Assembly: GCA_017656135.1 (NCBI GenBank)
Contig: JACDOJ010000007.1
Span: 975 to 64,974, forward strand
Direction of reading: 5' to 3'
Length of the DNA: 64,000 nt
Origin: Bacillota bacterium
GTDB taxonomy: Bacteria; Bacillota; UBA5301
Shown here: in pieces, positions 6,593-48,896 of the stretch
Numbering within the stretch: position 1 is the stretch's first letter
Layout: every line of letters begins with the position of its first letter
Made by a program: the position numbers and the translations under genes
The notes under the pieces: model-generated
What the model was told of the DNA's origin: nothing
What the model saw: the letters and a program-made list of their open reading frames with translations, nothing else
Database searches by the model: none

Positions 6593-7089
6593 AACTGACT
6601 GGACGAGTTTGGAAATTCGGCGACAACATCGACACCGATGTCATCATCCCTGCGCGCTACTTGAACTCAGCCGATCCGGCCAACCTGGCCGCCCACTGCC
6701 TGGAGGACGCAGATCCGGATTTCCCCAGCAAAGTTCAAGCGGGAGATATCATCGTCGCCGGCAAGAACTTTGGCTGCGGCAGTTCCCGGGAACACGCCCC
6801 GCTGGCCTTGAAGGCAGCAGGAGTAGCCTGTGTCATCGCTCCAACTTTCGCCCGGATTTTCTACCGGAACGCCATCAACATCGGCCTCCCGATTTTGGAG
6901 TGCCCGGAGGCTGCTCGAACCATCCAAGAAGGAGACAAAATAAGCGTGGATTTAGAAACCGGTACTATCACCCACACTGCCACAGGCAGTACCTGGCAGG
7001 CCAAACCTTTCCCATCCTTCATGCAAGAGCTGATTGGCGCCGGCGGCCTCATTGCCTACACCCGAAAGAAGGTGACCGGGCATGCCTAA
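6589..7089 (+). CDS. leuD: 3-isopropylmalate dehydratase small subunit
   Basis: 166 aa aconitase swivel domain; overlaps leuC stop. Confidence 0.9.
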
Positions 7090-8185
7090 GATCGCCCTCC
7101 TACCCGGTGACGGCATTGGAAAAGAAGTGGTGCGCGAAGCGGTCAAGATTCTATTAGCCGTCGGCAAGCGCTATAACCTAGATTTTGTCTTTGAAGAAGG
7201 GCTTATTGGGGGCTCTGCTTATGATGCCACCTCTTCCCCTCTTCCTCCGAAAACCATCGACCTCTGCCTTGGGGCTGATGCCGTACTTTTAGGGGCGGTG
7301 GGAGGCCCCAAGTGGGACGATCTTCCGGGAAACTTGCGGCCTGAAGCAGGCCTTTTGGGAATCCGCAAGGCCCTGGGCCTCTACGCCAATCTCCGGCCGG
7401 CCCGGGTGTTTCCCGGCTTGACTGGGGCTTCTCCCCTGAAAGAAAAGGTGGTTTCCGGAATCGATATCCTGGTGATCAGGGAACTCACCGGAGGAATCTA
7501 CTTCGGCGAGCCCCGGGGACGGGAAAAGCTGGTTTCAGGGGGAACCAAAGCCTATGACACCATGGTCTACACCACCGAGGAGGTCCGACGCATCGCCGAG
7601 CTGGCCTTCGAAATCGCGGCAAAACGCTGCGGCCGGGTGACCTCGGTGGACAAAGCCAATGTCTTGGAATCCTCCAGGCTCTGGCGGGAGGTGGTCCGCC
7701 AGGTGCACCAGAGATATCCTGACGTGGTCCTCACCGAAATGTATGTGGATAATTGCGCCATGCAGCTGGTCAGAGATCCGGGTCAGTTCGACGTTATTTT
7801 AACCACCAACCTCTTCGGGGATATCCTCAGCGATGAGGCGGCCATGCTCACCGGCTCTTTGGGTATGCTGCCTTCAGCCAGCCTAGGCGGCAGTGTCGGG
7901 CTGTATGAGCCTGTACACGGCTCAGCCCCGGATATCGCCGGAGAGAACAAGGCCAATCCTCTGGCCACCATCCTCTCAGCGGCCATGCTGCTCCGCTATT
8001 CCCTAGGACTCCATCAGGAGGCCCAGGCCATCGAAGACGCGGTAGAAGCCGCTCTCCTGGCCGGGTACCGCACTTTAGATATCGCCGCCGGCTCCTGTCA
8101 GGTAGTTAGCACTTCCCAAATGGGGGATCTGGTGGCGGGCTTCATCCGCCAGGGCAGCCAGCCTGGCAAGGCAGGTGCTCTCTGA
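7082..8185 (+). CDS. leuB: 3-isopropylmalate dehydrogenase
   Basis: Isocitrate/isopropylmalate dehydrogenase family motifs ([25 protein letters not shown]). Confidence 0.9.
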
Positions 8186-36925: not shown

Positions 36926-39439
36926 CTAGGCTCTGGAGACTAAACACCTGGTATAGATGGAAATACCGTCGGACATACCTTTACTTCGCACCCTGGCTAC
37001 AGCTATGGTCAAATCATCCTGAGGGACCCCGTCACAAGCCGCCATGCACTGGGCAAAGAGCTGCTCGGCAAAATCGGCAGCTCCCTGCTTTTTGGTATTC
37101 TCCAAGACTTTTTCAAACCAGTCTCCAGGCAAATCGGGGGCGCAGTCCTTAACCCCGTCAGTTATCATTACAATATAGTCATTTGGGTAGAGCCCTTCGG
37201 TGATGATCTGGACATCGACTTGAGAGAGAATCCCGATGGGCAGGGATTTGCCTTCCACCTTCAGGATCTCACTGCCTCTGACGATGTAGGTAGGCTGGCA
37301 GCCAATCTTCACAAACTCGGCCTCACCTGTATGCTCATCGAAGAGAAAGAGGTCGAGGGTGGCAAAACTCTCTTCGGGAGTCCTGAAGAGAAGCAGACTG
37401 TTTATGGCCCTGACTGCGAACTGACGATCCAGCCCCGCTCGGAGCAGGTTTTCCAAAAGGGAGAGCGTAGTACTGCTCTCTAAAGCCGCCTTGCTTCCGG
37501 AGCCCATGCCGTCGCTCAAGGCAATGCCGATCTTGCCTCCGGGCAGGGTTATCAAGAGGTGGTTATCTCCGTTCACCCGGGCGCCGCTCTTAGACTCCTC
37601 CACCACCTTATATTCCAAGTGGTATGCTTTTTCAGGCAGGAGCAGCAGCTCACACCAGGATTCACCGGTGTAGTACCCACAGGAGGGCTTAACCAGGCTA
37701 AACGGAGTTTCCATAACCGTCGAGGCCACCGGAGCCAGTTTCCTACACTCCTCCCTGCCGCCGCAGTTAGAACAGAGGACATGGATTTTGTACTGGCCGT
37801 CAGGTTGCAGGTCGGCTTTCACATCTTGGACCCGGCACTGTTTCTGGAGAAAGGCATCCAGTAAGGCTTTGGAAGGATCCTCCTTCACGCACCGGCGTTC
37901 CTGCATCTCCTGGGCCAAAGAGGCCACCACATCAGCCACCCCTTGCAGCTGGTTGGAGACAATCTCTCTGCTGGCTAAAAGTTTCTTTTCCCAGCTGCTC
38001 TCCACGCTCTCCAGTTCCAAGAGGTAGTTCACGGCCTGAACCAGTTTGTGAACCTGGGTGCAGGACCTTTTAGTTCCCACAGGCAGTTCTTGCACCTGTA
38101 AAGAGCCGTGCTTTTCGGCCTCTACCAGAACCTCTTCGAAGTTCTTGAAGGTACAGTAAAACTGGTCTTGCCAGCACCGGTTATAGCTGACGCACCCAGT
38201 GCAGACCCGGTCCGAGACGGCGTTGATCAGCTTGGAGATATCCGGGTGGTCCGTTGAAACCTGGTCCTGGGGAAACTGGGCAAAGCTCCTGGCCAGTTCG
38301 GTCAAAACATCCCCAAAGGTGGCCAGGCGCCCGGAGACCCAATCTCGTAGTTTTTGTTCTTCTCCGGCCAAAGCCCCCCGCTGCCGGACAGGATTCAAAG
38401 GAAACCAGCCGGCCCACTGCTGGATGAGACGGGAGGGGAAGACACCGATGAACAGGGCCGCCCCTAAAACTGATGAAGCCATTTCCATGAGCTCAACGGG
38501 GGTCAGCAGCTGGTAGGAAAGGAGAGTAGCTCCGGCTACAGAACCGAAGATGACACCTGCCTTGCCCATCTCTCTAAAAAGGCCGGCACAGACCCCAGCC
38601 GCCGCCAACGCCGTCAAGCAGTAAGGTGAGAAATCGCTTAAGAGAGCCACAATCACCCCAGCGGATATGGCGGTTACGGCACCTGCCCCAGGTCCAGCCA
38701 ACCAGGCCGCCGTAATGACCAGGATCCTGAGAACCATATCTTGAACAGAGAGGAGGCCCCAGTGTACCCCGTCCAAACCCGCAATACCGATGCCTGTAAT
38801 CAGGACAGCAAAAGCAGTCTCTTCATACCGCATCCCAGTGACAAAAAGATTGCTGGCTTTGAGTCTCGTTCCGAAATAACTCAGAATGGCCACGAGGAGG
38901 CCTGCCAAAACCGCTTCTAAAATTGCAAAGTACAAAAAAACGGGCTCACAGCCTGACAAAGTAGCCAGAATAATGCGCCCGATTAGCACTGCTCCAGAGG
39001 TGTAAAAGGCCCCAAAGATAATCTGGTAGCTGACCGTTCCTCCCTGCCGCCTGGCCAGGTGTGACCCGATTAAAACCAGGAAGGAAAGAAGCAGATATGG
39101 TGGGAGCTTGTCCACTCCCAGACTGGAGGCCAAGCCTATTATGGTGCCTATCAGGACCGGTAAGAGTCCCCAGGGATGAACCAGAGATATAGAGGCCAGG
39201 GCCGCCAGGGCAAAAGGATGGAACTCGCCAAAAAGTGACGCCCTGGCCCACATTATGGCAGTACCCGTCAGCAGAATGTGGGACCTGTTAAAAAGGAAGA
39301 ACAGGGATCGTGAATTTTTCGCCAAACCTTTGCAGCTATCCAAAAAGTTTTTCTGCCAAGTTACTGATATGGCCAAATTCATCCCCCCATAGCTTGTCCC
39401 ATTATATTGATAGAATAACACTGCCGGGGGTAAAGCCAT
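36926..39439 (-). CDS. spoIIE: Stage II sporulation protein E (PP2C serine phosphatase)
   Basis: About 10 N-terminal TM helices and C-terminal PP2C domain (GDGMGSG, ITDGV). Start uncertain (39439 or 39382). Confidence 0.85.
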   Translation of the reverse strand: MALPPAVLFYQYNGTSYGGMNLAISVTWQKNFLDSCKGLAKNSRSLFFLFNRSHILLTGTAIMWARASLFGEFHPFALAALASISLVHPWGLLPVLIGTIIGLASSLGVDKLPPYLLLSFLVLIGSHLARRQGGTVSYQIIFGAFYTSGAVLIGRIILATLSGCEPVFLYFAILEAVLAGLLVAILSYFGTRLKASNLFVTGMRYEETAFAVLITGIGIAGLDGVHWGLLSVQDMVLRILVITAAWLAGPGAGAVTAISAGVIVALLSDFSPYCLTALAAAGVCAGLFREMGKAGVIFGSVAGATLLSYQLLTPVELMEMASSVLGAALFIGVFPSRLIQQWAGWFPLNPVRQRGALAGEEQKLRDWVSGRLATFGDVLTELARSFAQFPQDQVSTDHPDISKLINAVSDRVCTGCVSYNRCWQDQFYCTFKNFEEVLVEAEKHGSLQVQELPVGTKRSCTQVHKLVQAVNYLLELESVESSWEKKLLASREIVSNQLQGVADVVASLAQEMQERRCVKEDPSKALLDAFLQKQCRVQDVKADLQPDGQYKIHVLCSNCGGREECRKLAPVASTVMETPFSLVKPSCGYYTGESWCELLLLPEKAYHLEYKVVEESKSGARVNGDNHLLITLPGGKIGIALSDGMGSGSKAALESSTTLSLLENLLRAGLDRQFAVRAINSLLLFRTPEESFATLDLFLFDEHTGEAEFVKIGCQPTYIVRGSEILKVEGKSLPIGILSQVDVQIITEGLYPNDYIVMITDGVKDCAPDLPGDWFEKVLENTKKQGAADFAEQLFAQCMAACDGVPQDDLTIAVARVRSKGMSDGISIYTRCLVSRA

Positions 39440-39533
39440 GTCGAACGGTTTCGAAGCCTGTCCTAAAGTTTTCCTTATTTTTTATTATTTTCCGAAAAAA
39501 CCCAAATAACTTTATATTATCCTACATATACCG

Positions 39534-39572
39534 AGGTAAAAAGAAACCGCCAGCCCCTTCGGCCAGCGGTTA
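39534..39572 (-). terminator. Rho-independent terminator (minus strand) after the zinc-finger gene
   Basis: AACCGCTGGCCGAAGGGGCTGGCGGTT hairpin followed by TTTCTTTTT on the minus strand. Confidence 0.65.
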
Positions 39573-39594
39573 AGAAGGAATTTACTGATAATTA

Positions 39595-39852
39595 CTAGGC
39601 ATTCATACCGTATTTAGTATAAGCCCACCCTGATCCACCGCATGCTTCACAATTGCTGTTGCTCACCATGCTCAGTCCGGAACCTTTGCAGATCGGACAC
39701 TTGTAGCCAGGTTTGGCCACGAACACCTTTCCGGCTCCGTTACAAACAGGGCAGAGGCCCCAACCGACATCAGCGGTCCCAGTACCTTTGCACTTCCGGC
39801 AGGTCTTCAAAACATAGTCGCCTGAAGTTTTCCGAGATCTCCTGCCAAACAT
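39595..39852 (-). CDS. Small DnaJ-type zinc-finger protein (4x CxxCxGxG)
   Basis: CRKCKGTG, CPVCNGAG, CPICKGSG and CEACGGSG repeats in 85 aa. GAAGGAGG RBS. Confidence 0.7.
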   Translation of the reverse strand: MFGRRSRKTSGDYVLKTCRKCKGTGTADVGWGLCPVCNGAGKVFVAKPGYKCPICKGSGLSMVSNSNCEACGGSGWAYTKYGMNA

Positions 39853-40096
39853 CCAATCTCCTCCTTCGCTGTGATTTTTTAAAACGTTACGGCCCCCACA
39901 ATTTACATATTAGTTCCCAGCTTAGCATTTCCTGCATTTTATGTAAATATATGTAATACTTTTCATATATGCGAACAGGCCCGGTTAATGCCGAGCCTGA
40001 AACCAATATGAAATTAAACATAATTCCTGCCGCATGTAGGCTCCCTGTGCTTCTGCCAATCTTGGGCTTCGCTTAGCGTAAAACAAATTACAATTT

Positions 40097-40477
40097 TTAG
40101 CCTGCGTTCCTGGCGAAACTCCGAATATTTCCGGACCGTTCAGGTTTGACGTTATCAAAATGCCTGGCGATTTCCGCATGAATCCGCTCTTCCAGTTCGT
40201 TGAGGCGAGTAGCCAAACTCATGTCAATAATGGTATCGCCCATCTGAACGATCATGCCACCGAGGATCGATGGGTCGATCACATTGTTCAGCTCCACGTC
40301 TTTGCCGGTTAACTCCTTGAGGACCCGCCCCAGCTTCTCCCTAGCCTCGTCGTCCAAAGGGACTACCGTCTTGACCTTGGCTTTGGCCTTGGACTGGTCA
40401 AATTGAACCGTGATCCCGCGCCTGGTCTTGACCAGCTGGCCATATTCCCGAGCAATCTTCCTACGCCACCGCTCCAT
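40097..40477 (-). CDS. Truncated F-ATPase delta/OSCP C-terminal-domain-like protein, paralog 1
   Basis: C-terminal LTGKDVELNNVIDPSILGGMIVQMGDTIIDMSLATRLNELEE aligns closely with the delta-subunit C-terminal segment (LTGKKVEL..VDPSLIGG..GDRVIDGS..RL.QL). No delta N-terminal domain. GGAGGG RBS at the ATG at 40477. Confidence 0.7.
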   Translation of the reverse strand: MERWRRKIAREYGQLVKTRRGITVQFDQSKAKAKVKTVVPLDDEAREKLGRVLKELTGKDVELNNVIDPSILGGMIVQMGDTIIDMSLATRLNELEERIHAEIARHFDNVKPERSGNIRSFARNAG

Positions 40478-40701
40478 CTCTTTCCCTCCTTTCGGTATGT
40501 AGGCAGCCCCCCCTGTAGGGGGGGTGCCCCTTATGCTGCTTCGGGGAGCCAGAATAAGCTCCCCGAATCTTGCAATCACACAATAAGTAAATTGTCGCTA
40601 ATTTCAGTATTTTTGAAATGTTTTAACTCCGGGCTCCATTAGAATAATTAGCCATTATCTGGTAAAAATCCTTTTTTTACCGCCTCTTTTTACTATATAA
40701 T

Positions 40702-41085
40702 TTATGCAGTAGTGTCAAAAAATACCCCGCTGTTGGCCTCTTTGCCTTCGGAAAATTCCTCGTGAATCCTTTGGTGAATGGATTCGGAAAGCTTTTCCAA
40801 CCGAGACTTCATGCTGAGATCGATGACCAGATCGGCAGTGGTGATAATCATACCGGCGATCAGGGAAGGATCCAGTTTGTTAACGATCCGTACTCTCCTC
40901 CCGATCAAGTCTTCCAGCGCCCGGGCCAGGTCTTTCTTATTTTGCTCAGAGAGCTCCACCACCGTAAAGACCTTGGCCACCACACTGTCATTAACCCGAA
41001 ACCCTCCTAACGGCCCATCGCTCATCCGTTGGTACTCCTGGGCTATTCGACTCCGCCATCTTTCCACAGAAACACCCCCTTCCAT
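40702..41085 (-). CDS. Truncated F-ATPase delta/OSCP C-terminal-domain-like protein, paralog 2
   Basis: RVRIVNKLDPSLIAGMIITTADLVIDLSMKSRLEKLSE matches the delta C-terminal consensus. Start placed at the ATG at 41085. Confidence 0.7.
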   Translation of the reverse strand: MEGGVSVERWRSRIAQEYQRMSDGPLGGFRVNDSVVAKVFTVVELSEQNKKDLARALEDLIGRRVRIVNKLDPSLIAGMIITTADLVIDLSMKSRLEKLSESIHQRIHEEFSEGKEANSGVFFDTTA

Positions 41086-41107
41086 ATCAATATCCCCACC
41101 CCCGGCA

Positions 41108-41150
41108 TCAGGGGGGAAAAACAAAAGCCAGAGCTTTTGCGCTCTGGCTT
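41108..41150 (-). terminator. Terminator-like hairpin plus T-run inside the leader of paralog 2
   Basis: AAGCCAGAGC-ttttgc-GCTCTGGCTT perfect hairpin followed on the minus strand by TTTTGTTTTT. A TTTGCA-17-TATAAT promoter lies upstream at approx. 41195-41230. Confidence 0.5.
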
Positions 41151-41275
41151 AAAACACTGCTTTTTTTAAGAACCCCGGGTCCGGTTACGAAAGGCGCACC
41201 CTATCCTATACAGTTTTTTCTATCTATACTATAATTATACATATTTTGACATAAAATGCAAACAATTCCACTAAT

Positions 41276-42907
41276 TCAGTTGGCTTTTTCCTGGCGGGCG
41301 ATGGTGATCAGGGCCTCCTGGTCCAGGTCATCCACCATATACAATCTGCCCTTGCCTCTTTTAGCCAAGTCCCGAAGGAACCTCTCATCGGGTTTCAACC
41401 CAATTACCACTAGTCGTGCTTTGACCTGCGGGATAAGCTCAACCGCCTCCAAGGCATCGGCCACCGGGTCGGAGGTGCAGAGAGGAACTGTGGGCAGGCC
41501 GTCAGTAATCAAAATCAGCAGCGGGTTCTTGGCCCGGGCCTTCTTGAGAAGCTTGACCCCTTCCACCAGACCACTGGCCAAAGGAGTGAGTCCCTCTGCC
41601 TCCACTCTGTGCAGACCACGCCGGAGCAATTCGTAGTTGCGGGTGAATTCGCTGGCCACCGTCGCTTCTTTGTTTTGAAAAATCACCACCCCTACCCGGT
41701 CTTTGGTAGTCAAAATGAGGTGCTCAGCCAGGTTTACGGCGGCCCGCAAGCGTTTACCCCGCATACTGGTGCTGGCATCGATTAGAAGCAGGATATCCCG
41801 GGGTTTTTTTGGGTTCTTCCTGTATACCCGCAGATCGGCTCGGGTAATTCCGGTCTCACCGCCGCCCCGGAGGAAGTTGTTTTTCTTGGCTGCTATCACT
41901 GTCTCGGAAACAGCGATGTTCCCAGCCCACTCCGCGTCTTCTAGGGGAACGATCTTGCCCCGCTCCGAATCCACTCTCCTCTGCCTGGGATTATCTTCGA
42001 AACTCACCGGCTGTAACTCGGTAACCGAAACCGGCACCTTGCGAATGATCTTCTTAAACTCAGCTTCCAGTTCCTTACTCCGGCTATTCGCCAGCTTGCG
42101 CAGCTCGACCCCTTCATCAGTAAGCCTGTAGCCACCCCAGAGGGTTCGCTTGGCGTACCCGGCTTGAATCAACTGGTTCAAAACTGGGGTGAGGCCGGCG
42201 TGACGCTCAGAGAGCTGGGCTATGGAAGGCGCAACCTTGACAGTCGGGTCCAAGGCCTCCAAGACCTCAACCGCCGCCTGCGTTGAGCCCACTGCCTTGG
42301 CTAAGAACAAAAGCTGCTGCTTTTGGGACAGCCAGGCGAAAGGATTGACTCCCCGAAAGCCGGTGACCGCTGCGGCGGTCTCCGTGATCTGAGAGCTACT
42401 TTGAAAGTCCGGTCCTAAATACTCCTGATGTACCAGCTTCTCCACCTTACGGATTTGCACGCCCTGAGAAGCCAGAAACTCTTCCACTTTATTTACCAAA
42501 ACAGGAATGTAGATGTACTGGCTCTGGGCCAGAGGGACTAAAATGTGCAGGTGGTTGGCTTCCTTGCCGGTCTCCACCGCCAATTCCGGCAGGTCCTCCC
42601 CAGGAAAGCGGATGGCCATTTCGTCCTTTAGGCCCTTCACTACATCTTCAGGATTAGCCACCAGGCCCGGGGCATGAAAAACATCCAGGTGCACGTATCT
42701 CTCAGGAGCCGCCCCCAGATAAAACTGGCCCGCATCGAGGTTAGAGAGAATCACAATCTGGCCGGGATTAGTTCTGTCCACTTGGTGCAGGCGCTTACTG
42801 ACCACCGAGCTTTCCCCAACCCTGAGGCCCTGAGAGTGATCGATGTATTCGCTGAAAAAGGTATTTAACTCCGAGCGATGCTCAGCCAGAATTGCTAACA
42901 GGTTCAT
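41276..42907 (-). CDS. ChlD-like von Willebrand factor A (VWA/MIDAS) domain protein
   Basis: C-terminal VWA domain with MIDAS DASTSM (DxSxS). 543 aa. Start is 3 nt downstream of the AAA+ gene stop. Confidence 0.75.
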   Translation of the reverse strand: MNLLAILAEHRSELNTFFSEYIDHSQGLRVGESSVVSKRLHQVDRTNPGQIVILSNLDAGQFYLGAAPERYVHLDVFHAPGLVANPEDVVKGLKDEMAIRFPGEDLPELAVETGKEANHLHILVPLAQSQYIYIPVLVNKVEEFLASQGVQIRKVEKLVHQEYLGPDFQSSSQITETAAAVTGFRGVNPFAWLSQKQQLLFLAKAVGSTQAAVEVLEALDPTVKVAPSIAQLSERHAGLTPVLNQLIQAGYAKRTLWGGYRLTDEGVELRKLANSRSKELEAEFKKIIRKVPVSVTELQPVSFEDNPRQRRVDSERGKIVPLEDAEWAGNIAVSETVIAAKKNNFLRGGGETGITRADLRVYRKNPKKPRDILLLIDASTSMRGKRLRAAVNLAEHLILTTKDRVGVVIFQNKEATVASEFTRNYELLRRGLHRVEAEGLTPLASGLVEGVKLLKKARAKNPLLILITDGLPTVPLCTSDPVADALEAVELIPQVKARLVVIGLKPDERFLRDLAKRGKGRLYMVDDLDQEALITIARQEKAN

Positions 42908-42909
42908 GC

Positions 42910-44151
42910 TTAAAGGTCACCCTCGGTGGCGACCGCCTCATCCACTGCCAGTTCAGAGATAGGGCGGGCCGGTTTCGGAGGTGCCGGCTGCGTTTCTTTT
43001 GGACCGGACTTAACCCTGCCGGAGCCGAAGATCCTGGCCAGGCTACCAGTCGTTTTTTGGCTTTCCCTGTCTCTGGAAGAACCCTGAGGTTTCTCGGTGG
43101 TGAAACGCCTCTCCTTCAGATAAGTAAGGATCTCCTCCAGCCGTTCCGGGAAAACTCGATGGTTCAGTGCCCAGGGTAAGACGGCGACCACATCATAGAC
43201 CTCTACGTGGTGCCGTTTGTGCAGGGCGGCTCTGATTTGGGCCCCTAGCTGAGCTGCTTCCACGGCCCGAAGGCTCTCAATCCCAAACTTCACGTACACC
43301 TCCGCCAACAGGTCTTCCACGTAATCCGGGACCCAGAGGTCGTCCAGCATCTCGGCAGCGGCCAGCAGGCGTTTGCGGACCTGCTCGTTCCCACGGTGGG
43401 ATAGACCGGCCCGAGTGGAGGATTTTGTCCGTCTCTGCCGGTTCTGGCGGAGGATGCCGGCAACAGCCTCCACTTTATCCGGCCGGCCCATATCAATCAC
43501 AAGGTCAAACCGGTCAGAAAGCTGTTTGCGGACGTCGCTCAGAGGGCCCGGATCTTCGTCGGGGTTAGATGCCGCCCAGACCGAAACCTGAACCGGGACT
43601 TCCACAGCTGCCAAACCCGTTTCTTCGATTTGCACCCGGCCAGGCTTGGTTCCCATGACGTCCAGAAGGATGTCGGTGATTTCCGGCGAGGTATCAGCTA
43701 AGCGGTTGATTTCATCGATGAAGATGATCCCCCGGTGAGCCTGGGGAATAATGCCAGGGAGCAGCGCGGCCTCTGGGTGGGTTTTATCAGTAATCTTGGC
43801 CAAATCAATGCTGCCGGCCACCGTGCCGATCTTGGCCGAGTGAGAGATCTCCAAGAAAGGCATGAGGATCTCTTCTGTCCCGATCCGGTCAATCTCTTCC
43901 GGAGAGAGGTTTCGGTGCTCCGGGCAGTGGGGCTCCGCCGGATCACAGTTGTAGAGACAGCCTTTGATCCGGGTTATCGTCGGCATCACCCCGGCCGCCG
44001 ACCGAAAAATGGTGGTCTTGCCGGTTCCCCGCAGGCCTTCGGCGTGGACGTGCAAAGGCAATCCGGCGAGGGTCGAGACAATAGACATTTCTACGGCTTC
44101 GAAAAGTGCTTCGTTTCCCTGGTACCTGGCTAGGTCCGAATAGAGCTTCAT
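42910..44151 (-). CDS. ChlI/BchI-type AAA+ ATPase (Mg-chelatase I-subunit family)
   Basis: Walker A GLRGTGKTT. Walker B IIFIDEINRL. ChlI-like arrangement. 413 aa. Confidence 0.75.
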   Translation of the reverse strand: MKLYSDLARYQGNEALFEAVEMSIVSTLAGLPLHVHAEGLRGTGKTTIFRSAAGVMPTITRIKGCLYNCDPAEPHCPEHRNLSPEEIDRIGTEEILMPFLEISHSAKIGTVAGSIDLAKITDKTHPEAALLPGIIPQAHRGIIFIDEINRLADTSPEITDILLDVMGTKPGRVQIEETGLAAVEVPVQVSVWAASNPDEDPGPLSDVRKQLSDRFDLVIDMGRPDKVEAVAGILRQNRQRRTKSSTRAGLSHRGNEQVRKRLLAAAEMLDDLWVPDYVEDLLAEVYVKFGIESLRAVEAAQLGAQIRAALHKRHHVEVYDVVAVLPWALNHRVFPERLEEILTYLKERRFTTEKPQGSSRDRESQKTTGSLARIFGSGRVKSGPKETQPAPPKPARPISELAVDEAVATEGDL

Positions 44152-44207
44152 GTTAACCCCCCGTTGTCCATATACTAGTAGTCTTCTCCATTGTAGTCAC
44201 ATGAACA

Positions 44208-44245
44208 GTGGGAAAGCAAGGTACAAAAAGCAAAAGAACCCGGGA
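44208..44245 (-). terminator. Rho-independent terminator (minus strand) after the small zinc-ribbon gene
   Basis: GAATCCGGTTTCCCGGGTTC hairpin followed by TTTTGCTTTTTG on the minus strand. Confidence 0.55.
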
Positions 44246-44300
44246 AACCGGATTCTTTTCACAAACTGCCAACTTTTTGCTTTGTAATCAGACGGTACAA

Positions 44301-44459
44301 TCACATGGGCTTCTGAACTTTTTGTTGCTCTTTAGCCTCGTACTGGACCTTGGCCTTGCAAATCTCACAGACGTAATACTTCTGAGCCGAGTGGGTAAGC
44401 CGCTTGTAGCCCTCGACCTTCTCGACTTTGCCGCAGATGATGCATCTCCTCTCCACCAT
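44301..44459 (-). CDS. 52-aa C4 zinc-ribbon protein (not in ORF track)
   Basis: MVERRCIICGKVEKVEGYKRLTHSAQKYYVCEICKAKVQYEAKEQQKVQKPM. AAGGGGG RBS 9 nt upstream of the ATG at 44459. Confidence 0.5.
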   Translation of the reverse strand: MVERRCIICGKVEKVEGYKRLTHSAQKYYVCEICKAKVQYEAKEQQKVQKPM

Positions 44460-44537
44460 ACTCTTGGCCCCCTTTACTTCTTACTAATATCTTCTACTTT
44501 TACGTAATTATATCCTCTTTGCATAAATATTTCCAGT

Positions 44538-44837
44538 TTAAAACTCTTGATGAATTTTTTCGTGAATGGATTCTGAGAGTTTCTCCAGCCTGGAAGCCAT
44601 GCTCATGTCAATCACTAGGTCGGAAGTTCGGATGACCATACCGGCAATAATCGACGGATCCAGCTTGTTTTTAATCCGGCACTTCTTCCCGGTCAGTTCT
44701 TCCAGGGCTTCCTGCAGTTCTAGTATTTCCTCATCCTTCAGTTTTACCACGGTAATAACTTCTGCCACGGTTTCGAAAGGGGACAAGTGGGAGGTGGCCA
44801 AGTAGTCTCGCTGCAAGCGTTCACGCCATTTGTTCAT
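44538..44837 (-). CDS. Truncated F-ATPase delta/OSCP C-terminal-domain-like protein, paralog 3
   Basis: LTGKKCRIKNKLDPSIIAGMVIRTSDLVIDMSMASRLEKLSE. 99 aa from the ATG at 44837 with GGAGGAGGGG RBS. Confidence 0.7.
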   Translation of the reverse strand: MNKWRERLQRDYLATSHLSPFETVAEVITVVKLKDEEILELQEALEELTGKKCRIKNKLDPSIIAGMVIRTSDLVIDMSMASRLEKLSESIHEKIHQEF

Positions 44838-44920
44838 CGCCTTCCCCTCCTCCAAAAACCTCTCCACTATCATGATATTCAGCAGGCGGCAAAAGTGAAC
44901 GAATTCACTGAAAAGGGCGT

Positions 44921-44950
44921 GAAAAAACCCCCTAACCCTAAGGCAGGGGG
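44921..44950 (-). terminator. Rho-independent terminator after the FAD-oxidase/Fe-S gene
   Basis: CCCCCTGCCTTAGGGTTAGGGGG hairpin followed by TTTTTTC on the minus strand. Confidence 0.65.
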
Positions 44951-44984
44951 CCTAAATGGTCCGTATCGTTCTATCCACGCCGAA

Positions 44985-47900
44985 TTAAGCGGATTTTTGG
45001 GCTTTGAGCCTTTCGGCCATGGCTTCCATCATCTCCGGTTTGATCCTGGCCAGGACCTTAGGCAGCATCGCCGGCATCAACTGATTCATAACCGAAGGAA
45101 GGATCTGTGGCATCAGCTCCTCCATGGACTCCGGCATATCCGGGATGTTCTTCTTCATCAGCTTCAAGACTTCCGGCAGCATCTTGGGCATCATCTGGTC
45201 CATCATCCTGGGCATCATTGCCGGCATGATCTTCTCCATCAGGTTCAGCATGATCTTCTTGGTGGAGTTGGGCATCTTCTCCATCTTGTCCATGGCTGAC
45301 TGCATGATCTCCGGCATCATATCGAACATCTGGGGCATCAGTTCCAGCATCATGTCGGCCATGCCTTCATCGGTCATCTGGTTCAGCGCCTTCTCAAAGA
45401 CGGACCACATATACCGGATCACCGGAGTCGGATCTTTGACTTCATAACCCAAACCTTCAGCGATGATGCTGGCGAAGTCCCTGATGGTCACCTCGGTCCC
45501 TTCGGCGTCAGCTGCCGCCCTAAGTTGGAACTCACAGCAGGGGCAGGTGGTGACCAGAGCGTCGGCACCGACCTCATTGGCTTCCCTTACCCGCATGTCG
45601 CCGAGTTTGTCAGAAGCGGCGGTGGCCCCGATCCGGGTCAAAACGCTGCCGCAGCAAAGAGCGTTTTCCCGGTTGTGCTTCATCTCTACCAGCTTGACGC
45701 CGGGAACAGAGGCGATGGATTCCCTGGGTTCTTCGTAGATCTTACCGTGCCGCCCAATGTGACAGGGATCGTGCCAGGTGAGGATCTTCTCCACCGGTTT
45801 CTTAAACTTCAGCTTGCCTTCCTTGATTTTCTCGATAGTGTACTGGGAAAGGTGGACGACCTCAACATCCCAGTCTATGCCGAGCTTTTCTGCCCACTCC
45901 TTGTAGTGGTGGGCCAGAGTCACCCAACAGCCGGGACAAGATGCGATCAACTTTTTGATGCCGCGTTTTTTAATCTGCTCAATGTTGTAGCGCATGACCC
46001 GCTCCCAGCGCTCCCACTGCCCTGACATCAGGAAGGGTACACCACAGCAGGACTCATCCTTGCCTAAGTAGGTGAATTTTTCACCGGCCTCTTTGAGGAT
46101 GTGGACCGCGTTTTCAGCCACATCGGTGGTAACATAGGAAGCGGTACAACCGGCCCAGTAGCCGATCTCGCCTTCCGGTTGGATCTCAACATCTTCCGGC
46201 ACCCAGGCATCCCGCTCAGCCATGCGACCGGCCCAGATGTTCCTGGCGTTATCCCAGGCTGCACCCATCATCTCGAAACCGGGGAAGGTCTGGAAATTCA
46301 GCTCTTCCACGAATTTGCCTCTGAGCTTGCCCCAGAGCTTTTCGATGGGCAGGTTCACCTGGCAGACGTCATCACAGCGTTTGCAGGTCGTGCAGAGCAA
46401 AAAGTTATCCACGACCTCCTGAGTAAGCTCGGCCTTACCCTCCATGTACTTGCGGAGGAAGAACCACTTACCCCGCGGGGAAGAGCCTTCGGTGCGTTTA
46501 CCGGCGTAGAGTGTGCAGACGTTGTTGCAGTACCCACACTGGGCACAGGCGTAAGCAGCGTAGGCTACTTCTTTAGGCAATTTCTTGCTGTCTTTGCCCT
46601 CTTTCGGCAGAACTTTTTCGGCAATATCAGTGATCGGGCGTCCCCACTTAGCCATCTGCATGGCAATCGGCAGGAACTTACCTTTGCCCATGATGACCTT
46701 ATCTGGATTCAGCAGGGTCTTAGGATCAGTTTCAGCCTTGAAGGCCTTAACCTTGGCCAAAAGGTCTTTGCCTAAAACCCGTTCGGCCTCGTGGGCGAAG
46801 AAGAGACCCATGGCATAGGGCCGGCCGCCGTTTTTCTCGGCCAACTCCTTGACCAGCAAGGATTTGGTGTATCCCAGCATGTAGGCAAGGGTCCGTTCGT
46901 CAGAAGTCAGGAAGGCAAGGATGGTGGCTTCTCCATGGGAGGTCAAGGTCCCTTCCACGGCAATACCTTTGACCTCCTCGCTGACTTGTTTCAGGAATTT
47001 ATCCATGTTGTCCACAGGAACCAGGGCCTCACTGGGGATCAAGGAAGGACCTAGTTTCTTGAGGCGCATGGGGTAAAAACGCTCGCCCCACTCTTCTTCA
47101 GCCAGCTCGGTAGAGAGAATCTGAGCCCCGAACTCCTCTGCCAGTTTCTCCAGTTCGCCTTGGAGGTATTCCCTGCTCTCAGGGTAGGCAAACAGGACCA
47201 CCGGCCGGTCTTTAGGCATAACATGATGCTCTTTGGCCTCCTCCCGGCGCTTCACAAATTCAGGAGTACCAAAGTTGATGTGCCAGAAGGGGAGTTTCCG
47301 CTCATAGACAGTGTTCAAAGCGGCAGTCATGTGTTCTTCGTCGGGGAAAGCCAGAGCGGCGACAACGTCTTTTTCGGCGGGACGGAGTTTCAGAGTGACT
47401 TTAGTGATCAGTCCGGTGATACCCTCTGTGCCAACAAAGAGAGGAAGGTCTGTGCCGGAAGCCTCTTTGACTTCGCCGGTGAAAGTGACGATCTCCACGG
47501 CAGCTACGTTTTCCTGGATGTGCCCGTACTCAAAGCTTCCGATACCGGCACCACCTGCCGCAACCCAACCGGCGCAAGTAGCACCGGGAGCGCTGGTGGG
47601 ATAGAGACGCAGTGCTACCCCCTGCCGGCGCAGCTCATCTTCGAGGTTACTCCAAATGACACCGGCCTCAACCACAGCCTCCATTTTTTCCGGGTCAACC
47701 TTGATGATTTTGTCCATCCGAGTGAAATCGATGGTGATACCACCGCGGGTAGGCATGGAGCCGCCGTAACCACTGGTACCGGCGCCTCGAGGAGTTAAAG
47801 GCAGGTCGTAACGGTCTGCTAAAGCAATGATCTTCTGAAGTTCTTCCACTGTTACCGGCTGAGCCACAGCATCCGGAACCACTTTGAAGGGGGCAAGCAT

Positions 47901-48008
47901 GGAATCAGGCATGCTACCCACATCGTGGCTGTAAAGGAGCCGCTCGTTGTATTCGAAGTGGACTCGGTCGCCGAGGACCTCAGCCAGCTCCCGTTGCCAA
48001 TCTTTCAC
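44985..48008 (-). CDS. Fused FAD-linked oxidase (GlcD-like) / Fe-S CCG-domain oxidoreductase (GlcF/HdrD-like) with Met-rich C-terminal tail
   Basis: FAD_binding_4 motif RGAGTSGYGGS. Two CxxCxxCxxxC ferredoxin motifs. Two CCG (CxnCCG) domains. About 140 aa Met-rich tail at the C-terminus (MxxMP/LMP repeats). GTG start with GGAGGTG RBS. Confidence 0.8.
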   Translation of the reverse strand: MKDWQRELAEVLGDRVHFEYNERLLYSHDVGSMPDSMLAPFKVVPDAVAQPVTVEELQKIIALADRYDLPLTPRGAGTSGYGGSMPTRGGITIDFTRMDKIIKVDPEKMEAVVEAGVIWSNLEDELRRQGVALRLYPTSAPGATCAGWVAAGGAGIGSFEYGHIQENVAAVEIVTFTGEVKEASGTDLPLFVGTEGITGLITKVTLKLRPAEKDVVAALAFPDEEHMTAALNTVYERKLPFWHINFGTPEFVKRREEAKEHHVMPKDRPVVLFAYPESREYLQGELEKLAEEFGAQILSTELAEEEWGERFYPMRLKKLGPSLIPSEALVPVDNMDKFLKQVSEEVKGIAVEGTLTSHGEATILAFLTSDERTLAYMLGYTKSLLVKELAEKNGGRPYAMGLFFAHEAERVLGKDLLAKVKAFKAETDPKTLLNPDKVIMGKGKFLPIAMQMAKWGRPITDIAEKVLPKEGKDSKKLPKEVAYAAYACAQCGYCNNVCTLYAGKRTEGSSPRGKWFFLRKYMEGKAELTQEVVDNFLLCTTCKRCDDVCQVNLPIEKLWGKLRGKFVEELNFQTFPGFEMMGAAWDNARNIWAGRMAERDAWVPEDVEIQPEGEIGYWAGCTASYVTTDVAENAVHILKEAGEKFTYLGKDESCCGVPFLMSGQWERWERVMRYNIEQIKKRGIKKLIASCPGCWVTLAHHYKEWAEKLGIDWDVEVVHLSQYTIEKIKEGKLKFKKPVEKILTWHDPCHIGRHGKIYEEPRESIASVPGVKLVEMKHNRENALCCGSVLTRIGATAASDKLGDMRVREANEVGADALVTTCPCCEFQLRAAADAEGTEVTIRDFASIIAEGLGYEVKDPTPVIRYMWSVFEKALNQMTDEGMADMMLELMPQMFDMMPEIMQSAMDKMEKMPNSTKKIMLNLMEKIMPAMMPRMMDQMMPKMLPEVLKLMKKNIPDMPESMEELMPQILPSVMNQLMPAMLPKVLARIKPEMMEAMAERLKAQKSA

Positions 48009-48092: not shown

Positions 48093-48896
48093 TTAGTCGT
48101 TTTGCAGCCAGTTTTCCCTAAATAGCTTAATGAAATTTAGAATAAAGCGAAATTCCTTTTCATCCAGGTCGCAGACCATCTGAAGGAGGGCCTGGACCCT
48201 AGGTTCTGCCAGAAGCTTCTTGCATTCAGGCTTTAGGTTGGTTAAAAGATCTTCGGTCACCTGATCGGTTTCCAGAATTAAAGAACAGGGAGTTACGCCC
48301 AGGGCCGTGGCCAGCCGCTCCAGAGTTTCTAGAGAAGCACCGGATTTACCCTGTTCGATCTGGGCAACCAGGCTTGCAGAAACACCGGCTTTCCCAGCCA
48401 GCTCCTTCCGGGACATGCCTAAAGAGGTGCGGACGGTCTTGAGCCGTTCTCCCAGTTCACGAGGGTTCGTCCGGTTCATCACCACAGGGAGGGAGATGCC
48501 TAAGACGTCGGCGAGACGTTTAAGCACATCAATACTGGGGTTGACCTGGCCTCTTTCGATTTGGCTGAGGTAAGCAGGGGAAATGCCCGCCAGTTTACTG
48601 GTTTTAGTGAGGTTCCAGCCCTTGCGCACCCGGGCCACCTTGAGCTTGCCCCCTAAGTAGATCTCCTCCTCAGGGCCGTTTTGGCTGAGTTCAGGAGGCA
48701 AGAGGGCATTGGCGTCGATGCCCAGGGCTTCGGCGATCCGCATCACCGTTTTAATGGAAGGCCGTTTTTTGTTCTGTTCGATCTCGCTTAGATAAGAAGG
48801 AGAGACGCCCACCTTCTCCGCCAGCTGCACCAGAGTGTAATTACGGCTTTTGCGATGGCGTCGCAGTTCAGATCCGAGGTTCATAACTTCACCCAC
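48093..48896 (-). CDS. XRE-family transcriptional regulator with three tandem HTH domains
   Basis: Three repeats of the Cro/C1 HTH pattern (..LAEKVGVSPSYLSEIEQ.., ..SKLAGISPAYLSQIERG.., ..LAGKAGVSASLVAQIEQG..). Confidence 0.75.
   Translation of the reverse strand: MGEVMNLGSELRRHRKSRNYTLVQLAEKVGVSPSYLSEIEQNKKRPSIKTVMRIAEALGIDANALLPPELSQNGPEEEIYLGGKLKVARVRKGWNLTKTSKLAGISPAYLSQIERGQVNPSIDVLKRLADVLGISLPVVMNRTNPRELGERLKTVRTSLGMSRKELAGKAGVSASLVAQIEQGKSGASLETLERLATALGVTPCSLILETDQVTEDLLTNLKPECKKLLAEPRVQALLQMVCDLDEKEFRFILNFIKLFRENWLQND

Follow-up and report, generated by a model that had tools for sequence, protein, structure and literature searches.

The window, the whole stretch of Bacillota DNA analysed here (64,000 nt), carries a block of seven genes upstream of spoIIE, in the order c3, Zn52, AAA+, VWA, c2, c1 and DnaJ-type mini-protein (Table 1). 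A sequence-only reading had placed seven genes here, and all of them exist, on the minus strand and at or near where it put them. Three, which we call headless deltas (c1-c3), encode little more than the C-terminal domain of the F-ATPase delta subunit. The setting appears to be a syntenic nadE-spoIIE stretch of an uncultured spore-forming Bacillota lineage, in which spoIIE is a flanking synteny anchor outside the module. The limits first drawn for c1 stood, and c3 starts at ATG 44837. For c2, the earlier start (ATG 41085) is less likely; GTG 41067, which gives 121 aa, is the most likely start because it preserves the conserved N-terminus of the family and has a Shine-Dalgarno site (ATG 41025 is another possible start). 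Zn52, said to be missing from the list of open reading frames, seems to have a public annotation, to judge by the consecutive accessions MBO8126342-347.

Table 1. Genes and signal-like elements of the block and its flank, in the direction of reading (positions in the window)
Feature	Position	Strand	Basis or remark
sigma-A-type promoter-like site upstream of c3, TTCACT-16-TATCAT	44872..44899	-	consensus
OSCPc3 (c3), headless delta paralog, 99 aa	44538..44837	-	PF00213, TIGR01145
promoter-like site upstream of Zn52, TGGAAA-17-TATAAT	44507..44535	-	TGGAAA-17-TATACT at the same place in L170
Zn52, 52-aa C4 zinc ribbon, DUF2197 family	44301..44459	-	PF09963
terminator-like hairpin after Zn52	44232..44259	-	12-bp stem and T-run
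ChlI/BchI-like AAA+ ATPase, 413 aa	42910..44151	-	AAA_lid_2, Mg_chelatase, BchI 1g8p
VWA/MIDAS protein, 543 aa	41276..42907	-	VWA_2, AF2 model, Foldseek
sigma-A-type promoter-like site upstream of c2, TTTGCA-17-TATAAT	41234..41262	-	consensus
terminator-like hairpin and T-run within the c2 leader	41125..41150	-	
OSCPc2 (c2), headless delta paralog, from GTG 41067	40702..41067	-	PF00213
OSCPc1 (c1), headless delta paralog, 126 aa	40097..40477	-	PF00213
DnaJ-type zinc-finger mini-protein, 85 aa, 4x CxxCxGxG	39595..39852	-	PF00684
terminator-like hairpin after the DnaJ-type gene	39545..39571	-	11-bp stem and T-run
spoIIE	36926..39439	-	SpoIIE_N and SpoIIE Pfam domains on identical contig

The identity of the headless deltas as delta/OSCP C-terminal domains and nothing more, first suggested from the sequence alone, is confirmed by profile searches. 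In a Pfam search the three proteins (99-126 aa) match PF00213 (OSCP) with E-values of the order of 1e-17 to 1e-21 (c1, 1.4e-21; c2, 3.9e-17; c3, 1.7e-18), and they cover only positions 100-171 of the 172 in the profile (102-171 in c3). c3, publicly named 'ATP synthase F1 subunit delta', also passes TIGR01145 (58.8 bits, cut-off 57.5); it consists of an N-terminal MNKWRERLQRDY helix and the domain. A family profile matches solved delta/OSCP chains over their C-terminal 70-80 residues, with E down to 5e-13. For c1, AF2 gave a low-quality model (pLDDT 52) with four strands and two helices; the top 46 PDB matches that Foldseek returns for this model, a check that the sequence-only reading had proposed, are all delta, OSCP or b-delta chains. 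c1 also matches the N-ATPase b model TIGR03321 (E 4e-6) and a b/delta fusion model. The alpha-binding N-terminal domain is missing, as had been claimed: its HMM, run over every frame of the 64-kb window, gives an E-value of 1.5 at best.

The headless deltas make up a distinct family within Bacillota. It is rare, with roughly 30 clusters at 90% identity, and public records label its members as delta subunits. Searched against 1.84 billion representatives, the family profile gave 16,402 matches, and among the best-scoring 150 only 4 had alignments that took in the start of the profile and with it the N-terminal helix. The motif of that helix, MEKWRxKIAxEY or more loosely ME(K/R/N)WRxK/R..A.EY, is common to c1-c3 and to relatives of the P0030 and P0211 types, and the C-terminal helix is longer than that of delta. 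Contrasted with 115 true deltas, the family is marked by N65 (88% against 10%), M75, M/L86 (100%; mostly G/A/S in true deltas) and I99 (97%; L in 69% of true deltas). The basic residues of true deltas at positions 78 (R/K 81%), 89 (67%) and 96 (74%) are neutral or acidic in the family. The docking surface has changed. Its partner may be something other than subunit b, and a simple role as a decoy for subunit b is disfavoured by the loss of these conserved basic residues. Orthologues are 60-67% identical for c1, 46-58% for c2 (lineages L005, L170 and L001) and 66-73% for c3 (L005 and L170). c1 is the paralog nearest to the solitary P0030-type members (31-37% identity), whose genes lie downstream of a helicase/RNase-H-like pair; a P0211-type gene pair is located after nuoH-N. 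An atp operon was found in none of the genomic contexts of the family.

The VWA gene starts 2 nt past the stop of the AAA+ gene. The ChlI-type assignment of the AAA+ protein holds: its translation shows a Walker A (GLRGTGKTT) and a Walker B motif (IIFIDEIN), its best solved relatives are BchI (1g8p) and ChlI (E 8e-20), and Pfam finds AAA_lid_2 (E 9e-10) and Mg_chelatase (21.8 bits against 20.3). It also has a conserved Cys insert, C65-x3-C69-x6-C76-x2-H79 (43915-43959). In species-representative genomes it has 137 relatives, which are 50-64% identical. The VWA/MIDAS protein, likewise correctly recognized at the outset, consists of an N-terminal His/Asp-rich domain (about 42413-42907), a winged helix (about 42038-42340, with weak winged-helix matches) and a VWA domain (about 41318-41797; VWA_2, E 4e-13). 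The MIDAS residues D377, S379, S381, T441 and D469 are invariant across 28 homologues, and so are H41, D58, H73, D75, H78 and E142. Its AF2 model has a pLDDT of 85.8. The pair is widespread in Syntrophomonadaceae, Thermincola and relatives and occupies at least four unrelated neighbourhoods; among the neighbourhoods compared, no client gene consistently adjoins it.

The two mini zinc-finger proteins were also rightly called. Zn52 matches DUF2197 at 22.6 bits (cut-off 22.2). No other protein of the block is as well conserved: it has near-identical orthologues in L001, L005 and L170 and a more distant family member in L172. The 85-aa protein scores 35.3 bits against DnaJ_CXXCXGXG (cut-off 32.7); its gene lies directly upstream of spoIIE and is found at the matching position in six lineages.

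Between the genes lie promoter-like sites and terminator-like hairpins, which appear to mark the limits of transcription units. The c2 site is conserved as TTTACA-17-TATA(A/C)T in L005, L001 and L170. In L005 and L170 the TTCACT of the c3 site is kept together with a downstream CTGAATAT block; a 16-bp palindrome, AGTGAATTCGTTCACT (44894-44909), overlaps the -35 element of this site. The sequence-only reading had speculated about a role during sporulation; by consensus only, the conserved promoters resemble those of sigma-A and not of a sporulation sigma. The hairpin that separates Zn52 from the AAA+/VWA operon has equivalents after Zn52 in L170 and L001. The hairpin in the c2 leader may serve as an attenuator, or it may terminate the AAA+/VWA operon; hairpins with different stem sequences lie at this position in L005 and L001, none is present there in L170, and the leader has no Rfam match. 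Each delta-like gene had been credited with its own promoter-like element and a structured leader, and this finds only partial support. Seven promoter-like sites compare with 4.2 +/- 2.1 in shuffles, relatives conserve the c2 and c3 sites, and folding gives z = -4.4 for the c1 upstream region and z = -2.1 for the c2 leader. On these signals the three headless delta genes would be transcribed separately.

That the delta modules and the AAA+/VWA pair make one functional system, as the sequence-only reading had supposed, is not borne out by gene neighbourhoods. At 80 loci of AAA+ homologues in other genomes, the VWA gene usually lies directly downstream (detected at 66, many of the remaining loci stopping at a contig edge), and a headless delta was found within +/-8 kb at none; the single OSCP match belongs to a genuine atpH within an atp operon. 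L001 and L178 have Zn52-c2-c1-DnaJZn-spoIIE without the pair, and L172 has AAA+/VWA-DnaJZn-spoIIE without any delta-like gene. Absence of co-occurrence, named beforehand as grounds for giving up the idea, is thus largely what was found. We regard the modules as separate, not as one new machine, because the delta-like proteins and AAA+/VWA occur without each other. Their independence is probable; the whole explanation, in which independent modules are juxtaposed between nadE and spoIIE, we hold with a confidence a little better than even. A lineage-specific functional link may still exist, since the full order c3-Zn52-AAA-VWA-c2-c1 is common to three diverged lineages (VWA proteins 46-55% identical) and c3 is found only with the pair among delta-carrying lineages (3/3).

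What might the separate modules do? Partners and functions we infer for every protein of the block. The C-terminus of subunit b binds the four-strand, two-helix C-terminal domain of delta (PMC6131620). In every other setting observed, this domain is attached to F-ATPase stator parts: in delta, OSCP, the b-delta fusion, N-ATPase subunit b and deltas with two or three tandem domains (delta subunits P0007-9 and P0018 have extra C-terminal domains fused). For this reason the headless deltas, which keep the alpha/beta domain without the alpha-binding bundle, probably bind a partner by its helical end. They could be an extra cap, a regulator or an assembly factor of the peripheral stalk, unable to hold F1. 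We would guess that they are docking modules that receive helical termini of proteins, perhaps at the stator; action at the ATP-synthase stator itself is conceivable, if somewhat doubtful. The AAA+ and VWA genes form a self-contained, translationally coupled operon of two genes. From the analogy with BchI/BchD and NorQ/NorD, their products may work as an ATP-driven, MIDAS-mediated chaperone that remodels a client or inserts metal into it; the conserved His/Asp domain of the VWA protein may take part. The DUF2197 and DnaJ-type proteins are products of separate small genes, the latter tied by position to spoIIE.

Alternatively, the headless deltas may have switched partner to the DUF2197 mini-proteins, forming small regulatory complexes unrelated to ATP synthase. 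The basic C-terminal tail of those proteins, CKAKVQYEAKEQQKxxKPM, would then bind at the site that receives the acidic b tail in delta, and the complexes might act on spoIIE-linked events. This is unlikely, although in three lineages c3 is the gene immediately upstream of Zn52, a second DUF2197 paralog follows c1 in L005 (stop/start overlap) and L001 (gap of 20 nt), and both the strong conservation of Zn52 and the altered charges at positions 78, 89 and 96 would suit such a partner. Against it, c1 is kept without a second zinc-ribbon gene in the window, L170 and L178, gene tables show none adjoining P0030- or P0211-type members, L172 has its DUF2197 gene without a headless delta, Zn52 has its own promoter-like site, and the charge argument is itself inferential.

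Less probable still is one system in which the delta-like proteins are adaptors or regulators docking on the ChlI-like ring or the VWA protein, or in a variant pass stator parts to them. The shared gene order in three lineages and the absence of c3 from two lineages that lack the pair would be accounted for. In related FliH proteins, delta-like globular domains bind ATPases; the FliH Pfam match here is weak (E 0.067). Against one system, besides the 80 loci and L172, where the pair adjoins spoIIE, c1 and c2 persist where the pair is missing, and distant family members never adjoin it. Each gene has its own promoter-like site, a hairpin parts Zn52 from AAA+, and the unrelated nadE, tilS and ftsH are equally syntenic in the stretch where the full order is shared. 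Finally, that the three genes are decaying, functionless fragments of a duplicated atpH is hardly credible: they are short and annotated as delta subunits, but their frames are intact with Shine-Dalgarno sites, identity to the orthologues in four to five lineages is 46-73% and the core residues are invariant, distant relatives share the family-specific N-terminal motif and signature residues, promoters are conserved in relatives, and the 64-kb window holds no remnant of the N-terminal domain.

The sequence-only reading knew of no described system that combines these parts, and none combining headless delta, AAA+/VWA and zinc mini-proteins was found in the literature or by PADLOC. The components can be compared singly. 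The headless deltas have the homologous alpha/beta domain of F-type delta/OSCP (PF00213, TIGR01145) and its core motif DPS(I/L)xGG...D.S...L..L. They differ in lacking the N-terminal helical bundle and the conserved basic residues, in the N-terminal WR helix, the longer C-terminal helix and the signature residues, and in having three gene copies outside the atp operon. The delta C-terminal domain is a movable module, since it is duplicated or attached to stator parts in the mycobacterial b-delta fusion, N-ATPase b and tandem-domain deltas. There the extra domains belong to the same polypeptide as a stator subunit, whereas the headless deltas are free-standing small proteins encoded apart from atp genes.

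The AAA+/VWA pair resembles BchI/ChlI with BchD/ChlD, and the putative cobaltochelatase model TIGR02442, in its adjacent, coupled genes, its AAA+ nearest BchI/ChlI and a partner with a C-terminal VWA domain and intact MIDAS. Unlike Mg-chelatase, the AAA+ protein scores far under the equivalog cut-offs (TIGR02030, 116 bits, cut-off 467; TIGR02442, 148, cut-off 779), no ChlH/CobN-sized open reading frame occurs in the 64 kb, and the VWA partner has its His/Asp-rich domain and winged helix in place of the AAA-like N-terminal half of ChlD. With MoxR-class NorQ/NorD it shares the two-gene AAA+ and VWA/MIDAS layout, the top Foldseek match of the VWA model being the NorD VWA domain complexed with NorQ (E 5e-10), but its AAA+ is of the ChlI and not the MoxR branch (AAA_3, E 0.05). 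The 85-aa protein, with its four CxxCxGxG motifs, is like the DnaJ zinc-finger domain and anti-TRAP (RtpA), but has no J domain and scores under the anti-TRAP cut-off (30.8 against 32); the 52-aa C4 ribbon is a match to the DUF2197 family.

All genes of the block lie on the minus strand of the window, and the gene content proposed in the sequence-only reading was recovered with small start-codon corrections for c2 and c3. The proteins c1, c2 and c3 are three small delta-like proteins that have only the C-terminal domain of the ATP-synthase delta subunit (delta/OSCP); they are called headless deltas here. The identical sequence has been deposited in an uncultured "Firmicutes/Bacillota bacterium" MAG (protein accessions MBO8126342-347), where both c1 and c3 go by the name of ATP-synthase delta subunit. 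The oxidoreductase at the head of the block is of the GlcD/CCG type, fused at its C-terminus (about 44988-45370) to a Met-rich tail of ~125 aa with MPxMM and MxxM repeats. The plus strand of the window carries a tRNA gene (117-201) and a lysine riboswitch (591-773; 131 bits) upstream of an ORF (878-2620). A search for anti-phage defense genes with PADLOC gave no matches except a weak zinc-finger one.

Genes of the block in order of transcription
Gene	Position	Strand	Remarks
FAD/CCG oxidoreductase	44985-48008	minus	1007 aa; first in transcription order
c3	44538-44837	minus	99 aa; second in transcription order
Zn52	44301-44459	minus	52-aa zinc ribbon; after c3
ChlI-like AAA+ ATPase	42910-44151	minus	413 aa; after Zn52
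VWA protein	41276-42907	minus	543 aa; start 2 nt past the AAA+ stop
c2	40702-41067	minus	121 aa counted from GTG; after the VWA gene
c1	40097-40477	minus	126 aa; after c2
DnaJZn	39595-39852	minus	85 aa, four CxxCxGxG motifs; after c1
spoIIE, tilS, ftsH		minus	downstream of DnaJZn; last in listed order

The similarity of c1-c3 to delta is restricted to one end of the subunit. The Pfam OSCP profile (PF00213) matches all three (E 1.4e-21 for c1, 3.9e-17 for c2 and 1.7e-18 for c3), in each case only within profile positions 100-171 of 172, and the NCBIfam delta models align only over their C-terminal 70 residues. Scores for TIGR01145 fall on both sides of its cut-off of 57.5 bits (c3 58.8, c2 56.3, c1 54.6), and those for the remaining delta equivalog models are far under the cut-offs. 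A profile of the headless family, run against the PDB, matches solved chains of delta, OSCP and the b-delta fusion in their C-terminal domains (E down to 5e-13). An AF2 model of c1, which at low confidence (pLDDT 52, six-sequence alignment) lends weak support only, has a strand-helix-three strands-helix layout, and each of its 46 best PDB matches in Foldseek is a chain of one of these three kinds. For the C-terminal domain of delta, the same layout is given in PMC6131620. The conserved DP..GG...D.S...L motif of this alpha/beta domain is also present in c1-c3. The original claim of a C-terminal delta domain only thus holds on profile positions as well as on PDB profile and Foldseek matches.

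A delta N-terminal-domain HMM, made from 115 true deltas, found no such domain in the six frames of the 64-kb window (best E 1.5), and c1-c3 are therefore not frameshifted full-length atpH genes. Their genes are outside an atp operon, with the FAD/CCG oxidoreductase, zinc ribbon, AAA+, VWA and spoIIE genes as neighbors; for comparison, a true delta gene is found in the atpH-A-G-D-C operon of locus L049. Because the part that holds F1 is absent, c1-c3 cannot be delta and ought not to be recorded under that name. Automatic pipelines label such proteins "F0F1 ATP synthase subunit delta", an annotation that a family definition corrects. The hallmarks for re-annotation are an N-terminal WR helix, signature residues of the family's own and non-atp contexts.

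Searched against 1.84 billion representative proteins, the family profile had 16,402 matches, almost all of them ordinary deltas aligned via the C-terminal domain alone; among the best 150, just 4 representatives align from the first positions of the profile, including the N-terminal helix. A word-indexed search with the family alignment as query gave ~30 clusters at 90% identity. Three groups can be distinguished: the spoIIE-linked c1/c2/c3 types, a 130-aa type (P0030), to which c1 is the nearest paralog, and a 168-aa type (P0211). All start with ME(K/R/N)WRxK/R. Compared with the 115 true deltas, the fold core is kept (V35, T37, L53, D68-P69, G74, D85, S87, L92), while N65 is found in 88% of the headless family vs 10% of true deltas, and position 86 is always M or L (100%), where true deltas mostly have G, A or S. 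M75 and I99 are further signature residues. The basic residues conserved in delta at positions 78, 89 and 96 are lost, and the C-terminal helix runs past the end point of true deltas. Between lineages, orthologues are 60-68% (c1), 46-58% (c2) and 66-73% (c3) identical. From these distinct and conserved features, the headless deltas appear to be an old branch with a new role, not debris. A metagenome scan for more such loci added two close relatives; the other matches were weaker (28-48% identity) and are most probably ordinary atpH genes. Public data also hold full-length deltas in which the C-terminal domain occurs two or three times in tandem (P0007, P0008, P0009, P0018) and headless proteins in which it occurs twice (P0010, P0023 and P0027 are listed with the tandem-domain proteins).

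Upstream of spoIIE, the gene order took six forms in the window and related genomes; the latter are all MAGs, and the taxonomic labels of several are doubtful.

Gene order upstream of spoIIE in the window and related genomes
Locus	Order	Remarks
window, L089	c3-Zn52-AAA-VWA-c2-c1-DnaJZn-spoIIE	
L005	as in the window, with a second DUF2197 gene	start of second gene overlaps c1 stop
L170, L171 (GCA_002408345.1)	as in the window	
L001-4 (GCA_964483175.1)	nadE-Zn52-c2-c1-Zn50-DnaJZn-spoIIE	no AAA+/VWA, no c3; Zn50 is a second DUF2197 paralog
L178-180 (GCA_012735535.1, GCA_036678605.1)	nadE-Zn52-c2-c1-DnaJZn-spoIIE	no AAA+/VWA, no c3; most often sampled type
L172 (GCA_029961005.1)	DUF2197-upp-AAA-VWA-DnaJZn-93 aa-spoIIE	no delta-like gene

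The full block is found in three lineages only, and there it lies in a stretch where nadE, tilS and ftsH are syntenic too; conservation of the block alone thus counts only weakly toward a functional link. When species-representative genomes were scanned, 137 AAA+ relatives at 50-64% identity came up; they are from Syntrophomonadaceae, Thermincola, Syntrophaceticus, Thermacetogenium and others, and several copies in one genome are frequent. Among the 80 loci kept, the VWA gene is directly downstream of the AAA+ gene in 66, many others stopping at a contig edge, and some have two or three VWA paralogs. None of the 80 has a headless delta within +/-8 kb of the AAA+ homologue; the sole OSCP match belongs to a genuine atpH, within an atp operon 7.8 kb off in one Syntrophomonas. 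The pair occurs in at least four unrelated neighborhoods. In the other direction, P0030-type genes stand alone, behind a DEAD-helicase/RNase-H-like pair and adjoining pst/phoU. In another Bacillota MAG (L177, 6685-8510), two headless deltas (118 and 169 aa; the P0211 type and a second copy) and a TPR gene directly follow nuoH-I-J-K-L-M-N, the sole bioenergetic context seen for the family. One MAG carries the P0030 and P0211 types in separate places. Each module thus occurs without the other, in both directions. The proposal that delta-like modules and AAA+/VWA pair form a single system fails on these counts (0/80 AAA+ loci; L001 and L178 with deltas alone; L172 the converse): the block is not a categorically new system, and the combined-system reading is unsupported. 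Recognition of the pair as an independent, widespread two-gene module prevents a false call of this kind.

What the headless deltas do can be argued mainly from the domain they keep. The delta C-terminal domain is the docking surface for the C-terminus of b (PMC6131620). In the occurrences seen elsewhere, the domain is always a stator part: in delta, OSCP, b-delta fusions, N-ATPase b (model TIGR03321, E 4e-6) and tandem-domain deltas. That some species fuse extra C-terminal domains in cis provides a Rosetta-stone-type argument that the free domains act at the stalk too. We tentatively favor such a role, in which a domain devoid of the F1-binding head would cap b2 or compete for it and leave F1 untethered. 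The changed charge pattern at positions 78, 89 and 96 speaks against it, as does the fact that the headless family is never seen in an atp-operon context. Alternatively, the proteins might have switched partner and now bind the neighboring DUF2197 mini-proteins, by the basic tail at the C-terminus of the latter. c3 adjoins Zn52, and c1 adjoins a second zinc-ribbon gene, with stop/start overlap in L005; however, three lineages do without this second zinc ribbon, the distant family members have no zinc-ribbon gene listed beside them, and we consider the switch unlikely. That the headless deltas are adaptors for the AAA+ protein, as first supposed, seems improbable with the modules separable. Among lineages with delta-like genes, c3 is present exactly where AAA+/VWA is, and this is the only residual hint of a functional link between the modules. 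An equally long shot combines the stalk role with this hint: the headless deltas would be a new class of trans-acting peripheral-stalk factors, which could cap b2, compete with delta or supply in trans the extra C-terminal domains that some species have in cis, and on which, in the window's clade, the AAA+/VWA pair would work to remodel or assemble the stator, for example on entry to or exit from dormancy. That c1-c3 are pseudogenes can practically be dismissed for a family that does not look like debris. Action at the stalk is the reading we tentatively prefer. The headless deltas are rare, mis-annotated and testable, and they are candidates for new stator-binding or helix-docking regulators in anaerobic spore-formers.

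The genes of the block are separated by predicted signals, namely separate promoter-like sites and terminator-like hairpins, called by consensus. Promoter-like sites are not significantly enriched (7 vs 4.2 +/- 2.1 in shuffles), but those before c2 (TTTACA-17-TATAAT) and c3 (TTCACT-16/17-TAT(C/T)AT) recur at the same place in related lineages. Terminator-like hairpins lie downstream of Zn52 and of DnaJZn. The region upstream of c1 (40478-40700, minus) folds strongly vs shuffles (z = -4.4), the c2 leader modestly so (z = -2.1). Hence the suggestion that each delta-like gene has its own promoter and structured leader survives in part: recurrence and folding favor it and the shuffles do not. The c1 upstream region has three hairpins, including CCCCCCC-TACA-GGGGGGG beside the ribosome-binding site. 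The c2 promoter-like site is followed by a terminator-like hairpin and T-run in the window (41125-41262, minus), L005 (about 7175-7360) and L001 (about 6900-7105); the stem sequences are unlike among the three lineages and look compensatory, and the hairpin could be an attenuator. A second C-run/G-run hairpin is right before the c2 ribosome-binding site; the short c2 leader of L170 has neither. Rfam gave no match to the leaders at gathering thresholds, and none at E <= 1 over 39400-45100. A perfect palindrome, AGTGAA-TTCG-TTCACT (44894-44909, minus), overlaps the -35 of the promoter-like site before c3, where it may serve as an operator; L005 has a near-identical one, with spacer TTTG, in the equivalent position. 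Upstream (48093-48896) lies the gene of a regulator that has three HTH domains of the XRE type. By-eye inspection for sporulation-sigma promoter motifs found none convincing.

Our literature searches (OSCP/VWA/AAA+ combinations, delta paralogs and sporulation, DUF2197, Mg-chelatase/VWA/sporulation) found nothing relevant, nor a published description of the headless-delta family or of this AAA+/VWA family. The zinc mini-proteins were rightly called: Zn52 passes the Pfam gathering score of DUF2197 (22.6 bits vs 22.2) and DnaJZn that of DnaJ_CXXCXGXG, PF00684 (35.3 bits vs 32.7). DnaJZn is upstream of spoIIE in all six lineages (window, L005, L170, L001, L178, L172) and is its most constant neighbor. 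The second DUF2197 paralog after c1 (L005 8381-8533; L001 8080-8232) has no detectable remnant between c1 and DnaJZn in the window, and is absent from L170 and L178 too.

The ChlI-type AAA+ and VWA/MIDAS assignments also stand. The AAA+ protein (Walker A GLRGTGKTT, Walker B IIFIDEIN) is closest to BchI and ChlI (1g8p, E 8e-20; PF01078, 21.8 bits vs 20.3) and by sequence belongs to this branch, with equivalog scores far under the cut-offs (TIGR02030, 116 vs 467 bits; TIGR02442, 148 vs 779). Its residues 65-79 (43915-43959) form a C-x3-C-x6-C-x2-H insert conserved in its relatives and not known from BchI. The VWA protein (AF2 model pLDDT 85.8) has three parts. The N-terminal alpha/beta domain of ~165 aa (about 42413-42907), for which residues 1-165 gave no Pfam or PDB sequence match, has H41, D58, H73, D75, H78, H119, H121 and E142 invariant or nearly so and may be a metal site. 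The middle part is a winged helix via weak matches only. In the C-terminal VWA domain the MIDAS residues D377, S379, S381, T441 and D469 are invariant, and Foldseek places the domain closest to NorD in its complex with NorQ (E 5e-10); ChlD and cobaltochelatase models align to residues 307-523 only. The window has no ORF of ChlH/CobN size (>= 1100 aa), and the 80 related loci no conserved ChlH/CobN-type neighbor. Neighborhoods vary by lineage: clustering of neighbors at the 80 loci found no conserved client or third gene, only lineage-specific synteny with a response regulator, a GerM-like lipoprotein with murI and rph, or lrgAB; a client may be encoded farther away. In Syntrophomonadaceae (L010-L088, e.g., L012, L069) the pair lies between a response regulator and the GerM-like lipoprotein, followed by murI, rph and rdgB. 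Thermincola-type loci have two or three VWA paralogs behind one AAA+ gene, and several genomes have multiple copies of the pair.

In comparison with known systems, c1-c3 share with F-ATPase delta/OSCP the homologous C-terminal alpha/beta domain, but lack the helical bundle that binds the alpha N-terminus, and their genes are not placed between atpF and atpA as delta is. DnaJZn has the CxxCxGxG repeats of DnaJ and anti-TRAP, whereas the J domain is absent, DnaJ equivalog models score far under their cut-offs, and those for anti-TRAP (30.8 bits, cut-off 32) and RtpA (29.9, cut-off 65) are not reached. The AAA+ protein shares with Mg-chelatase ChlI/BchI the AAA+ fold, Walker motifs and nearest similarity; the chelatase partner ChlD, however, has an AAA-like N-terminal half and linker before its VWA domain, in place of which the window's VWA protein has the His/Asp-rich domain and winged helix. 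In NorQ/NorD, as here (2-nt gap), AAA+ and VWA genes with intact MIDAS are adjacent, but the AAA+ protein is of the MoxR subfamily, and that of the window does not reach the AAA_3 cut-off (PF07726; E 0.052, 13.9 bits vs 27). At the equivalog level, the pair is a member of neither BchI/BchD nor NorQ/NorD. It can be studied in syntrophic Firmicutes as an uncharacterized chaperone or metal-handling pair, and, by analogy to those two systems, we infer that it would be an ATP-driven, MIDAS-dependent remodeling or metal-handling chaperone.
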